A DNA stretch of 64,000 nucleotides from Escherichia coli (GCF_003790525.1 NZ_CP033634.1), one strand, 5' to 3'; numbered from the stretch's first letter, positions 23,758-28,181 are shown. A program made the numbers and translations. The notes: a model not told the origin generated them from the letters alone.

Positions 23758-24558
23758 ATGCTTTCTTCCCGGTATGTTATAGTTATTAAGATACTTTTGT
23801 CCCTGTTCTGTTCCGGAGTGAACATGATTTTTGTCTGTTCTGTTGTACTGGCTGGCAGGGCATTCACCCTGCAGTTTGCCGGGAAAATGCTGTCCCTTTC
23901 TGCAGGAGATGTGCTTCTGATTGATGATGCTGATCGTGAGGATTTTCAGCCTCATGCTGAGCATATCACTGAGGTGAGGCTGGATGAAAATATCATCCGC
24001 AGATATCTGGAGAGTTGTGGCGGCAACCGGGAGGCCGACAACACGGTTTCTTCTGGTTTCATCAGAGTGGCCTTTGCTCATCCTGCGTTGTTGCGTGACG
24101 TTATGCATCATCTGAATTCGGGAGGATTTGTTCATCCCGGATTTTCCGAGCAGATGTTTTTTTCCTGCATTGCTGTCTTTGCATCAAAAAAAGGCTTTCT
24201 TCCTTTGTTGCTGGGCGGAATGCTTTCTGTGGCCGGGAGAGTGAGGCATATCATCTGTACTGACCTTTCACGCCAGTGGAAGCTGCGGGATGTCAGCAGT
24301 CGTTTGTATATGAGTGAAAGTCAGCTGAAAAAGAAACTGAAGGAAGAAGGATGTTCGTTCACCGGAGTGCTTCTGGATGTGAGAATGGGCTATGCACGCC
24401 GTCTGTTACAGGCCCGTCTGCCGGTCAACAGGGTGGCCGCGCAGTGTGGTTATGTAAGCACATCTTATTTTATCTGCGTGTTCAGGGAATGTTTTGGCGT
24501 CACGCCTCACCGGATGCTGGCGCTTCAGGAGCACGGGCAGCATAAAAGTGAATGCTGA
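23758..24558 (+). CDS. AraC/XylS-family transcriptional regulator (start codon uncertain; alternative ATG at 23824)
   Basis: C-terminal AraC-type HTH (SRQWKLRDVSSRLYMSESQLKKKLKEEG...VSTSYFICVFRECFGVTPHRM), resembling GadX/PerA-group regulators; begins 38 bp from the transposon boundary. Confidence 0.75.
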   Translation: MLSSRYVIVIKILLSLFCSGVNMIFVCSVVLAGRAFTLQFAGKMLSLSAGDVLLIDDADREDFQPHAEHITEVRLDENIIRRYLESCGGNREADNTVSSGFIRVAFAHPALLRDVMHHLNSGGFVHPGFSEQMFFSCIAVFASKKGFLPLLLGGMLSVAGRVRHIICTDLSRQWKLRDVSSRLYMSESQLKKKLKEEGCSFTGVLLDVRMGYARRLLQARLPVNRVAAQCGYVSTSYFICVFRECFGVTPHRMLALQEHGQHKSEC

Positions 24559-24874
24559 GTTTGAATTATTCTGAAGAACGGCGGGCATTTTATGGAAACG
24601 GCACATTTCCGTGTCTCTGTGGTCATTCCCGATTGCTGTTGACGCATCGCCACTCACCGGAAATGTGCCGGAATATTTTAATCGTTCTTCACCGTCTGTG
24701 AAGGTCCTGTGCTTACATTGCTGAGCGGAAAATGGCTGGTAGGGGTTTGAGGTCCAGTGGAACGAAAACGTACGCTAAGAGAGTAATTCGTTGTTTTTAA
24801 ATAGCTTAATACGTTGAATCCGGGAGAGTTTAGCCTTCCCGGATTAGATGCGGCGTAATCCCATTACCTCACAT

Positions 24875-25804
24875 TCAGCGATAAACCGAACGTGCAATGC
24901 GGGTATATGTATGCCTGACTCCGCGAATGGCAATACTATAAGCTAGGATGTTCTCCGGTAGTGCCATCCCCATATAGCCGGTATCACCAATATGGTGCAG
25001 ATCGGCCCCTGCCATTTTGCTCATTAACGCTATTTGACGAATGGTGCTTATATCAGCACCTTCCTGGGACGTGCCAATAGCAGTCATCGCCAGTACACCA
25101 TTGGCATGTGCGGTATCTATAAGCGATGTCACACGCTGCTGACTCATTCCGGGTATCGTGCCTGGAGCCGGGATCAACACAATGTCTGCGCCTTGAGAGG
25201 CAAACCAGATAACATCCTCCTCGCTGATAATGCTGCTGCCACTTTCATGCGCCACTCCAGCACCGTGCATTTTTCCGGTAATAATCACGGCACCATCCCC
25301 GATTGCCTCGCGAATATCTCTCGCTGCCAGCCCCAGAGCGCAATTGCTGACCCCGTTATTAGGATTACCTGTTAGCACCAGAATTTTTGCGCCCATATTA
25401 ACCAGCTTACGGGCATTGTTAGCCGTTGCTGCCCGCCCTGATTTCATTTTCCAGATATCGTCATGAGCAACAGCAAATTCAGGGTCTACGGCCTCCAGGT
25501 TCACACCAATGATACGGCCTGTCAGGCGTTGCAGTTCATGCAACGTTTGTTCTGGTGCAATACCTGCGGGTAATCCCTGAATATACGGATTTTCACTGTC
25601 AAACATATTAACCAGTAAAATATCTGCGCCCTGTGATGCAGCAAGTTCGGCATTCGTGACATTGTTCAGTAATGGCTGGGTAATCGCGATGGATTCGCTA
25701 ACCATCACACGGCCTTCACTGGCACGAATAGCGTACAGAAGCCTGGTTTTATCCATCGATACAAAATCGGAAGCACAGCAGTCCAGCAGCCGTTTATTGG
25801 TCAT
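24875..25804 (-). CDS. Hypothetical protein co-transcribed with PTS EIICB (possible sugar-phosphate enzyme; function unassigned)
   Basis: 309-aa ORF whose ATG overlaps the PTS gene stop (ATGA); Gly/Ala-rich segments suggest an alpha/beta fold, no confident family. Confidence 0.7.
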   Translation of the reverse strand: MTNKRLLDCCASDFVSMDKTRLLYAIRASEGRVMVSESIAITQPLLNNVTNAELAASQGADILLVNMFDSENPYIQGLPAGIAPEQTLHELQRLTGRIIGVNLEAVDPEFAVAHDDIWKMKSGRAATANNARKLVNMGAKILVLTGNPNNGVSNCALGLAARDIREAIGDGAVIITGKMHGAGVAHESGSSIISEEDVIWFASQGADIVLIPAPGTIPGMSQQRVTSLIDTAHANGVLAMTAIGTSQEGADISTIRQIALMSKMAGADLHHIGDTGYMGMALPENILAYSIAIRGVRHTYTRIARSVYR

Positions 25805-27198
25805 TGAGCGCCTCCTTGCTGATTAACCAGTTCAGTGATTTCACCCGCGATAATTTCTGCCCGGGTTCCTACAATGACCTGTAGCCCGGTATCTCCGCGT
25901 TTTACAACGCCCATGGCTCCGAGTTTCCTGAGTTCTGGCTCTTGAATCATGTCCATGTTTGCGACCTCCAGGCGCAGACGGGTAATACAGGCATCAATAC
26001 GCATAATGTTTTCTTTCCCACCCAAAGCGGCAAGATACGCCGTTGCTAAATCGGAGGAACCGGCAATAGCTGAAATGGTTTCCTCATTATCTTCTCTTCC
26101 TGGCGTAGCGAGATTAAAGCGACTAATAAAAAAGCGGAACAGGAAGTAATAAATCAGTGCCCATAAGCCCCCAATAGGTAGCATTAATAACGGATGTGAG
26201 GCCAGTCCGAATGACAGTACATAATCAATTAACCCAGCCGAGAACGTAAATCCAAGTTTAATCCCAAGAATTTGACACACAGCCATAGAAACGCCAGTCA
26301 GTACCGCGTGGATACCGTAGAGCACAGGCGACAAAAACAAGAAGGTGTATTCCACGGGTTCCGTAATCCCCGTCAGGAATGTCGTCAGCGCGAGTGACAG
26401 GAATAACCCGGCGACAGCGGGGCGTTTATCTTTCGGGGCTGCGTGATACATCGCGAGGCATGCAGCAGGCAGAGCAAACATAAATACCGGGAAATATCCC
26501 GCCATAAATGCCCCGGCAGAGGGATCACCGGCAAAGAATCGGTGGATATCACCGGTCACCACGGTACCATCCGCCGCCGTAAAGGAACCGAAAACAAACC
26601 AGACCAGCGAGTTAACAATATGGTGCAAACCCACGACGCGAAAAAGAACGTTCAGTATACCGTACACAAAGGGGCCAACCGGGCCAGACGCTACCAGCCA
26701 GTTACCAATTGCATTCACGCCATGCTGTACCGGTGTCCATGCCCAGCCAAGAATAACACCCAGCAGCAGGCAACTTAACCCAGTGGCTATTGGGACAAAA
26801 CGTTTTCCACCGAAAAAAGCCAGATATTCCGGTAACTTGATATTATGATAGCGATTATACAGCACGCCCGCCAACAACCCAGTCAGAATGCCAGACAGGA
26901 CCCCCATATTAAGTTCAGGATTGATAGCCTGCATCACAGAAGTCAGTACCAGGTAACCAATCGTACCTGCCAGGCTGGCGGCACAGTGATTGTCCTTTGC
27001 AACCCCCCCACTGATACCTATGGCAAACAGTAGTGGTAAGTTTTCAAACAGTGTTTGCCCTGCTTTCATTACAAACACAATATTGAAAACATCGGGCTGC
27101 CCAAGACGTAGCAGCAACCCGGCGACGGGTAATACAGCAATAGGTAGCATCAGTGCCTTGCCCAGGCGCTGCATGATGACGAAAAAATTCCCCTGCAT
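25801..27198 (-). CDS. PTS glucose-family EIICB permease
   Basis: 465 aa; N-terminus MQGNFFVIMQRLGKALMLPIAVLPVAG resembles PtsG/NagE starts; multi-helix IIC domain then IIB domain with ITRLRLEV. Confidence 0.85.
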   Translation of the reverse strand: MQGNFFVIMQRLGKALMLPIAVLPVAGLLLRLGQPDVFNIVFVMKAGQTLFENLPLLFAIGISGGVAKDNHCAASLAGTIGYLVLTSVMQAINPELNMGVLSGILTGLLAGVLYNRYHNIKLPEYLAFFGGKRFVPIATGLSCLLLGVILGWAWTPVQHGVNAIGNWLVASGPVGPFVYGILNVLFRVVGLHHIVNSLVWFVFGSFTAADGTVVTGDIHRFFAGDPSAGAFMAGYFPVFMFALPAACLAMYHAAPKDKRPAVAGLFLSLALTTFLTGITEPVEYTFLFLSPVLYGIHAVLTGVSMAVCQILGIKLGFTFSAGLIDYVLSFGLASHPLLMLPIGGLWALIYYFLFRFFISRFNLATPGREDNEETISAIAGSSDLATAYLAALGGKENIMRIDACITRLRLEVANMDMIQEPELRKLGAMGVVKRGDTGLQVIVGTRAEIIAGEITELVNQQGGAQ

Positions 27199-27431
27199 AA
27201 ATTCACCTCAGTAGTCGTTGTTCATTTTGCGCATGAGACAGTAAACCATCTATGTACCATTTGTAGACCATAATGTTTTATGGCTAAAAAGACCTACTGA
27301 TAGATAGCTGTTTTGTGATCTAACGAGCTTTATTTTTCTTCTGTGAGTGATTTCCAGGATGACAATGGACGCTCACTGGTTAAGAATTGGTATACAGAGA
27401 TTGAACCAGATATAACCTGCTAAGAGGAACG

Positions 27432-28181
27432 ATGAAAAAAACTCCGCAACCCGAATTTCATCTTGATGAATCCAGCGCGATGCCGCTGTATATGCAACTG
27501 GTTAATGCCATTAAGTTAGCCGTAGCGGAAGGTCGACTGCATCCTGGTGACGTTTTGCCGTCAGAACGGACACTGGTAGAGACGTTGAACATTGCGCGAG
27601 GCACAGCCCGTAAAGCATTGCAGCAACTGCTGGAAGAGGGCGTTCTCGTGCGTAATCAGGGTTCTGGTACATTCGTTGCTCCACATGTACTTCAATCTCT
27701 GCCGTTATTGGAAAGTTTCAGTGAAATGGCCGTTGCCAGTGGTGGAGAAGCACAAAGCGAACTGGTCGGGTATCAGCGTCGGGCATCTGCGCCGGAAGAG
27801 CGTCGTGCCCTGCAACTGACAGATGGTAAAGATGAGGTTGTGGAGCTAACCCGACTGCGGAAGATTAACGGTATTGCCGTTTCCCTTCAGACAGCGATTT
27901 TACCTGCGGCTCTGCTGGATAAAATCAGTGAACTGGATGAGTCGTTGTACCTGCATCTGGAGAAGAAAGGCGCTCCAGTGCTGCGGGCGAGTCAGAGCTT
28001 CCGCGCAGTGCCAGTGGACAATAAACTGGCACACTATCTGAACATCGGGGAGCATGAACCACTCCTGTTGGTAACCCGCACAGGCTTCACTCACGAAGAT
28101 AAGCCGGTGGAATACACCCGGACATGGTGCCTGAATGATTACTATGATTTTACGATTGAGCTACATCGAAAAGAATCATAA
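27432..28181 (+). CDS. GntR/HutC-family transcriptional regulator
   Basis: N-terminal winged HTH (PLYMQLVNAIKLAVAEGRLHPGDVLPSERTLVETLNIARGTARKAL) plus a UTRA-like effector domain; divergent from the PTS operon. Confidence 0.85.
   Translation: MKKTPQPEFHLDESSAMPLYMQLVNAIKLAVAEGRLHPGDVLPSERTLVETLNIARGTARKALQQLLEEGVLVRNQGSGTFVAPHVLQSLPLLESFSEMAVASGGEAQSELVGYQRRASAPEERRALQLTDGKDEVVELTRLRKINGIAVSLQTAILPAALLDKISELDESLYLHLEKKGAPVLRASQSFRAVPVDNKLAHYLNIGEHEPLLLVTRTGFTHEDKPVEYTRTWCLNDYYDFTIELHRKES

Follow-up and report, generated by a model that had tools for sequence, protein, structure and literature searches.

Gene content of the cassette

We analysed a phosphotransferase system (PTS) sugar locus in a 64,000-nt stretch of Escherichia coli DNA (NZ_CP033634.1), hereafter called the window. 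Genes were taken from open reading frame (ORF) calling, and all coordinates of the locus are positions counted from the first letter of the window. The four ORFs named in an earlier note, written from the sequence alone, were all recovered at the same positions, each with a strong family match. Three of them, encoding a NagE-type permease, a protein of family DUF7916 and a GntR-family regulator, form the core of the locus, a self-contained cassette at 24805-28193.

The two operon genes are located on the minus strand. The first (25801-27198) encodes an EIICB permease of 465 aa without an EIIA domain, and the second (24875-25804) a DUF7916 (PF25509) protein of 309 aa. Since the reading frames overlap by four bases, an ATGA in which EIICB stops and DUF7916 starts, co-transcription of the two genes is very likely. 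The regulator gene (27432-28181, plus strand; 249 aa, HutC subfamily) diverges from the operon, with a promoter region of 233 bp in between. Beyond the DUF7916 stop codon, the cassette continues into a 3' flank (24805-24874) with a short hairpin at 24821-24843. A second copy (L087), located between unrelated insertion sequence (IS) elements, shares 93.3% nucleotide identity with exactly window 24805-28193, the 3' flank included. The borders of this copy thus define a mobile three-gene unit. Rfam found no RNA elements in 23400-28800, and no defence system was matched by PADLOC.

An EIICB permease of the NagE type

The permease scores 573.5 bits against the NagE IIBC model TIGR01998, passing the curated cut-off of 553.2, and a pairwise alignment gives 53% identity with residues 2-466 of E. 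coli NagE. In this alignment the GITEP motif of EIIC is kept (FLTGITEPVEY here vs FLTGVTEPLEF), as is the phosphorylatable cysteine motif CITRLR of EIIB, where IDACITRLRL is identical to NagE. No EIIA is fused: the protein stops level with residue 466 of the 648-aa NagE, where EIIA would start. Therefore, the permease must draw on an EIIA of the host. The orthologues at L087, L088, L012 and L092 likewise lack EIIA, and going by these sequences EIICB-only is a conserved architecture.

In a RefSeq record annotated by PGAP (NZ_CP129283.1) the nagE gene is given as a pseudogene with 'missing C-terminus' (window 25837-27198), the last 12 codons being trimmed. This flag was set because the EIICB stops where the EIIA of NagE would begin, and it is probably an artefact of the comparison with the 648-aa protein. 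We judge it so because the EIICB-only orthologues are equally long, with equal or near-equal lengths in the homologues L087, L088 and L012 (465 vs 465 vs 460 aa), and because the dN/dS ratio (nonsynonymous to synonymous substitution rates) of EIICB vs its homologues is 0.07.

DUF7916, a predicted TIM-barrel family

The second operon protein matches only DUF7916, at E 1.3e-120, with its residues 7-309 aligned to model positions 1-296 of 296; NCBIfam returned no match. The same model is matched by all 62 of 62 aligned relatives. The earlier note had described a glucose-family EIICB co-transcribed with a 309-aa protein that it could not assign, and this description is borne out by the TIGR01998 score, the ATGA overlap and the DUF7916-only match. 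The profile search that it had proposed returned DUF7916 alone; a well-characterised enzyme whose cognate PTS is known, which would have spoken against the note, did not come up.

An AlphaFold2 (AF2) model built on 62 diverse relatives has a mean predicted local distance difference test (pLDDT) score of 95.7 and displays eight strand-helix units, i.e. a (beta/alpha)8 TIM barrel. When the 309-aa protein was compared with PDB sequences using phmmer, the best E was only 0.14, and Foldseek against known structures yielded generic TIM-barrel neighbours with template modelling (TM) scores of ~0.5. The close matches in AFDB50 are other DUF7916 proteins only, and the legacy names found there conflict: HAD-like hydrolase, phosphoenolpyruvate (PEP) phosphonomutase, dihydrodipicolinate synthase and radical SAM. 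With the family profile, the top match among PDB sequences was NanE of C. perfringens (E 3e-4, 90 positions); by our own reading, the barrel register appears shifted in this match.

Three names were considered for the family, and none was adopted. The protein was not assigned to NanE, as there is no significant in-register match to model or structures; the Pfam NanE model (PF04131) gives weak matches in 3 of the 62 family members, none at E 1e-3 or better. The HAD-like hydrolase label is at odds with a model that is a (beta/alpha)8 barrel, and a HAD match occurs in one of the 62 members (E 0.037). For the PEP mutase/isocitrate lyase label ('PEP phosphonomutase') we found neither a model match nor a specific structural neighbourhood.

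Strands 6-8 of the DUF7916 barrel are followed by loops rich in Gly and Pro (PAPGTxPG, GTSQEG and IGDxG), and the C-terminal ends of the strands carry numerous invariant polar residues. In the model, these loops and residues would be consistent with the binding of a phosphorylated sugar. E53 and E248 are near-invariant, and there is a lysine that is not invariant; together with the Gly/Pro loops, this pattern may lean slightly towards isomerase or epimerase rather than Schiff-base aldolase chemistry.

DUF7916 is widespread. At E 1e-3 or better the family comprises 592 cluster representatives (50% identity clusters), with relatives in Enterobacterales, Vibrio, Neisseriales, Providencia, Bacilli and many Clostridia; structural matches extend to Mollicutes, Spirochaetes and at least one archaeon. 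In the library searched, a full-text literature search for DUF7916 and PF25509 found no paper on the family, and for LSA1692 it gave a transcriptome table only.

The GntR regulator and the shared promoter region

The divergently transcribed regulator combines a GntR helix-turn-helix domain (PF00392, residues 19-82, E 1e-16) with a UTRA domain (PF07702, residues 103-238, E 2e-28). Because of this combination it is placed in the HutC subfamily, in agreement with the earlier note, which had recognised a divergent GntR/HutC regulator. For this protein, none of the named NCBIfam equivalogs (PhnF, HutC, TreR and others) reaches its cut-off.

An alignment of 12 orthologous intergenic regions revealed three conserved blocks. 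Upstream of the EIICB start, three direct GTACCA-like boxes with a spacing of ~11 bp (27245-27272, ACCATCTATGTACCATTTGTAGACCATA) form a candidate GntR operator. When 15 or more of the 18 specified positions were required to match, a search across 1.52 Mb of fetched loci showed that the triple pattern is confined to orthologous promoter regions; it also occurs at L004 and L011, both outside the set from which it was derived. A conserved TTTTGTGATC box lies at 27311-27332, the aligned block covering 27311-27320, and its TGTGA (27314-27318) is kept in 10 of the 12 aligned regions. Going by the known consensus, this box can tentatively be read as a CRP half-site with a poor right half. The imperfect palindrome CTGGTTAAGAATTGGTATAC / GTATACAGAGATTGAACCAG (27376-27409), an inverted repeat conserved across loci, overlaps the predicted gntR promoter, for which a promoter-like site is predicted at 27359-27387, and is a candidate autoregulatory operator. 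We thus regard the triple box and the palindrome as predicted operators of the GntR repressor.

Cassette copies elsewhere and permease loss

Apart from the IS-flanked copy, a chromosomal copy with 75% nucleotide identity is located between rbsD and kup in other Enterobacterales (L088/L089), and Rahnella perminowiae (L012) has the same three genes in the same order. Across all three cassette genes dN/dS is 0.05-0.39, with 0.05-0.14 for the DUF7916 gene vs its homologues. Judged by these ratios, the cassette is under purifying selection.

To survey the relatives we used a narrower alignment (A2), the first one (A1) being too diverse. The locus counts given here and below cover the 80 closest species-level genome loci encoding a DUF7916 relative. 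An orthologous GntR gene divergently adjoins DUF7916 in 10 of these 80 loci. Loci without a permease, two-gene and orphan alike, still encode pieces of the EIICB 3' end ahead of DUF7916. In Raoultella planticola ATCC 33531 (L016, 4340-4420) the EIICB gene is reduced to an in-frame mini-ORF of ~37 codons, consisting of the first ~21 and the last ~16 codons; the DUF7916 gene that directly follows is intact. In Yersinia similis (L007) and Y. pekkanenii (L004), only a 3'-end remnant is left, of a type ending in IAGEIRELVNQ and the stop codon. Since these EIICB remnants stand upstream of DUF7916 in permease-less loci, we conclude that the three-gene operon is ancestral in this clade. By the same comparison, the permease was lost on several occasions, whereas the DUF7916 gene has remained whole.

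DUF7916 genes recur beside PTS permeases and HutC regulators at greater distance as well. A Burkholderiales metagenome-assembled genome (MAG) encodes EIICB and DUF7916 proteins that are each 57% identical to those of the window (L033). At L092 the identities are 40% for DUF7916 and 37% for EIICB, the latter scoring 572 bits on TIGR01998, and a SIS-domain protein and a LacI regulator are present in addition. Among the 11 distinct DUF7916 contexts having Pfam annotation, six contain a PTS permease. A Lac-family PTS operon ends in DUF7916 at L096 (649-6873), and in Leclercia adecarboxylata (L103, 2252-6628) a Lac-type PTS is found with a Gfo/Idh/MocA oxidoreductase, DUF7916 and a GntR/UTRA regulator. 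Lactococcus formosensis (L101, 3939-6669) has a Leclercia-like gene set without the PTS.

Two further observations concern the family at large. A second, shorter DUF7916 subfamily (~283-290 aa) recurs at L103, L101 and L096, and may represent a different pathway on the same barrel. Directly downstream of DUF7916, a protein of ~600-617 aa is encoded at L018 (9002-10852), L017, L020 and L032; the hosts are Cedecea, an Enterobacter isolate, a soil MAG and Vibrio hepatarius. The 617-aa protein has no Pfam or NCBIfam match.

Distribution and deletion of the cassette on plasmids

The full cassette is present in 4 of 72,556 PLSDB plasmids and in 4 of 5,426 complete E. coli genomes, in none of them on the chromosome. 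All cassette-bearing records with a stated source come from chicken or chicken meat; one PLSDB record has no source. In 25 further complete E. coli genomes, mostly on IncK2/Z plasmids, nothing but the final 193 bp of the DUF7916 gene (24875-25067) remains. The junction in pEGY2 (L003) fuses window 25067 directly to 28579, with a GG microhomology. The segment absent from most IncK2/Z plasmids (25068-28578) thus measures 3,511 bp and comprises 737 bp from the 5' end of the DUF7916 gene, the EIICB gene, gntR, a tnpR remnant and a further 61 bp. Because a gene fragment occupies the 'empty' site, the common IncK2/Z plasmids must derive by deletion from a cassette-bearing ancestor, and the 193-bp remnant offers a simple marker of this lineage of poultry plasmids. 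The suggestion of the earlier note that such modules can be niche-adaptation loci sits awkwardly with deletion from most IncK2/Z plasmids.

A plasmid with a genuinely empty site was sought in order to fix the insertion borders, and none was usable: in pHH194M-140K the homology ends at 24736, at the end of an AraC block, and continues into unrelated DNA. As a separate observation, 122 bp at window 24742-24863, in the gap that separates the AraC gene from the end of the DUF7916 gene, are 100% identical in Klebsiella pneumoniae plasmids. One carrier is the IncFIB/IncHI1B virulence plasmid pCR-HvKP4-VIR, where the stretch lies in unannotated DNA. Some part of a 508-bp query is matched by 375 Klebsiella records, and all eight of eight sampled rows match the 122-bp stretch alone. 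It spans the left cassette border at 24805, and either the cassette or the element that carried it may have left it behind.

A proposed PTS-fed route for a GlcNAc-like sugar

Starting from the gene identities, the operon structure, the conserved cassette with its cis-elements and the purifying selection described above, we infer a substrate class, a reaction type, an EIIA donor, a repressor-operator pairing and an effector. It seems fairly probable to us that the cassette is an inducible, repressor-controlled route for PTS uptake and conversion of a sugar resembling N-acetylglucosamine (GlcNAc). EIICB would import and phosphorylate this GlcNAc-like sugar, an N-acetylhexosamine or a close derivative, with the phosphate supplied in trans by EI, HPr and EIIA of the host (Crr or the EIIA domain of chromosomal NagE). 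The DUF7916 TIM barrel would then turn the sugar phosphate into an intermediate usable by amino-sugar or glycolytic enzymes of the host, most likely in an isomerase- or epimerase-type step. The GntR/HutC repressor would bind the GTACCA boxes in the shared promoter region, and binding of a phosphorylated pathway intermediate to its UTRA domain would release it and derepress both promoters. Like the earlier note, we leave the individual substrate unassigned.

Several points weigh against this proposal. A Glc-family EIICB adjoins DUF7916 in 2 of the 80 loci, and most of the DUF7916 genes in this set are orphans beside housekeeping genes (purB/phoPQ, rimO, radA), as in Citrobacter, where the gene is located between purB and phoPQ. 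Clearly, the DUF7916 enzyme does not need the EIICB permease, and one 88%-identical homologue comes after an ascorbate-type PTS operon. The neighbours across the 80 loci are heterogeneous housekeeping genes, and inference from them is mostly uninformative. We found no DUF7916 member with an established activity, and the fold and profile neighbours are generic; the reaction is thus a guess. If the permease simply carries GlcNAc, as the TIGR01998 score suggests, no enzyme beyond NagA/NagB would be needed in E. coli. Finally, the deletion of the cassette in most IncK2/Z plasmids argues against strong selection in E. coli.

In an alternative explanation, GntR and DUF7916 would be the real unit, supplied with their metabolite through the host PTS or internal recycling, and EIICB would be an ordinary, dispensable GlcNAc permease riding along. 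The pair occurs without a permease in 9 of the 10 loci having a GntR orthologue, the operator boxes are conserved with or without EIICB, DUF7916 stays full-length where EIICB has repeatedly been deleted, and the permease scores above the equivalog-domain cut-off for NagE IIBC. Yet the EIICB remnants point to an ancestral three-gene operon, the ATGA overlap joins EIICB to DUF7916, a distant pairing of DUF7916 with a NagE-type EIICB has been found independently at L092 and L033, and the plasmid and IS-flanked copies moved the three genes together; we therefore hold this explanation to be unlikely. Even less can be said for a decaying, non-functional passenger in E. coli, left over from a transposon insertion into the IncK2/Z backbone and without phenotype. 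The cassette adjoins a resolvase remnant, carries the PGAP pseudogene flag on nagE, and is rare on plasmids and deleted in 25 of the 29 matching complete E. coli genomes. However, all three ORFs are full-length with homologue-like lengths (465/465/460, 309 and 249 aa), dN/dS lies well under 1, the elements of the promoter are preserved, and the flag looks artefactual given the conserved EIICB-only architecture. This makes an inert relic distinctly improbable.

It is very hard to maintain that the AraC-family gene (YdeO-like, 23758-24558, plus strand; RefSeq start 23824) is a second regulator of the module, as the earlier note had included it. Only proximity speaks for such a role, the gene being convergent with the operon and 316 bp apart. 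It travels with perC as a backbone block (23720-24736) that is kept in plasmids without the cassette, an AraC homologue was found in none of the 80 DUF7916 loci, and the annotation of the IS-flanked and chromosomal cassette copies lists none. Its distribution effectively refutes the assignment, and on this comparison the gene belongs to the plasmid backbone and is not a cassette component. Together with the IS/transposon region and the resolvase remnant, this gene forms the surroundings of the cassette; none of the three is a part of it.

Returning to the GlcNAc-like uptake route, a broader version can be put forward only tentatively, and we consider it rather doubtful as a whole: DUF7916 would be a new sugar-phosphate-converting family that, together with a NagE-type permease and a HutC repressor, forms an undescribed PTS-fed GlcNAc-related route. 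This would be an ancestral route in Enterobacterales that has been pruned again and again, with occasional mobilisation on plasmids of poultry E. coli.

Likeness to known systems

The permease resembles E. coli NagE, a member of the glucose family, in its identity over IIC and IIB, its GITEP and CITRLR motifs and its TIGR01998 score. It differs from NagE and the nag regulon in its length (465 vs 648 aa), in not being linked to nagBACD and in being coupled to DUF7916, which is not in the nag regulon. The repressor of the nag regulon is the ROK protein NagC, whereas the cassette has a GntR/HutC protein instead.

In overall design, the cassette rather recalls E. coli mngR-mngAB and Bacillus subtilis treP-treA-treR, in which a HutC regulator is combined with one PTS permease and one enzyme. 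Logic and size are the same, with a UTRA regulator and a cytoplasmic enzyme acting on the phosphorylated product. The enzyme of those systems, however, is a known glycoside hydrolase, while that of the cassette is an uncharacterised TIM barrel; and since the permease is NagE-like, the substrate of the cassette is probably an amino sugar of the monosaccharide type. NanE, a TIM-barrel N-acetylmannosamine-6-phosphate 2-epimerase, is alike in fold and acts on an N-acetylhexosamine 6-phosphate, a substrate of the kind proposed for DUF7916.

An accessory PTS island of Streptococcus pneumoniae consists of a ROK regulator, a Lac-family PTS, a 'PEP phosphonomutase-like' hypothetical protein and a sulfatase (McAllister et al. 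2012, PMC3283741). The hypothetical protein shows HHpred similarity to IMPDH, GMP reductase and NanE, and deletion of the PTS genes together with it lowered fitness in mice (PMC3283741). The island is similar to the cassette as a PTS operon with a protein that bears a DUF7916 legacy name and is a possible member of that family, and a further parallel is the Lac-type PTS ahead of DUF7916 at L096 and L103; it differs from the cassette in the PTS family, in the regulator and in its sulfatase, which is absent from the cassette. When we searched with a Firmicute DUF7916 member, no S. pneumoniae entry was among the best 120.

Taken for what it is, the locus is a rare intact plasmid copy of a conserved cassette, with an architecture of a known kind and an enzyme family without assigned function. 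As a minimal portable three-gene unit, the plasmid copy provides a convenient handle for discovering the substrate and reaction of DUF7916. It is important to note that it is evidence neither of a virulence determinant nor of an AraC-regulated locus.

Plasmid backbone and cargo

The earlier note had located the module between the transposon and a tnpR remnant, and this holds: TnAs1 and IS1414 lie to the left and a resolvase pseudogene to the right. On the left, a PAS-domain chemoreceptor gene and the IS256-family element IS1414 are situated inside a TnAs1/IS26 resistance region. On the right, a C-terminal tnpR/resolvase remnant extends from 28269 to ~28517 on the minus strand, in RefSeq a pseudogene without N-terminus. 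Its translation resembles the C-terminal part of a gamma-delta/Tn3-type resolvase. The remnant is outside the cassette, as the L087 homology ends at 28193, yet forms part of the 3,511 bp that other plasmids have lost. With E 5e-60, the AraC-like protein resembles YdeO, and its 203 bits on the YdeO model stay below the equivalog cut-off of 348.

Over positions 23500-28400 the window shares 100% identity with pGZM7d, a plasmid of an E. coli from chicken liver. The 47.6 kb that we read from this closest record contain a class 1 integron with dfrA17 and aadA5, as well as sul2, IS26 and TnAs1; their annotation lists no virulence genes. The plasmid is a multidrug-resistance plasmid, and the designation 'virulence plasmid' used in the earlier note finds no support in this record.

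The backbone is of the I-complex (IncK2/Z-like) and split into 11798-15866 and 23720-31026. Compared with pPK8275-82kb, the part with repA, relE-parE, proQ-finO and perC is 94% identical and the part from AraC to umuC 99.5-99.8%. These unequal identities suggest that the backbone is recombinant. About 7.9 kb of TnAs1, integron, IS26 and IS1414 DNA sit within perC. The PAS-domain methyl-accepting chemotaxis gene (20672-22228), whose 3' end abuts IS1414, is a passenger of TnAs1-type transposons on many Enterobacteriaceae resistance plasmids.

Further to the right, umuC is broken up by a low-GC block (~37%) at 31435-34579. Its genes code for a PIN-domain protein, an AbiH-family protein and a hypothetical protein of 362 aa, for which neither NCBIfam nor PADLOC gave a match; IS2 comes next. 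The block may be a small anti-phage island. Just upstream of a pair formed by a small ORF and parA (28719-29644), tandem TTGTTATC-type repeats that make up a long hairpin are found at 28655-28713. The copy number of the TTGTTATC repeat varies among related plasmids, and the repeats may be partition-site iterons.

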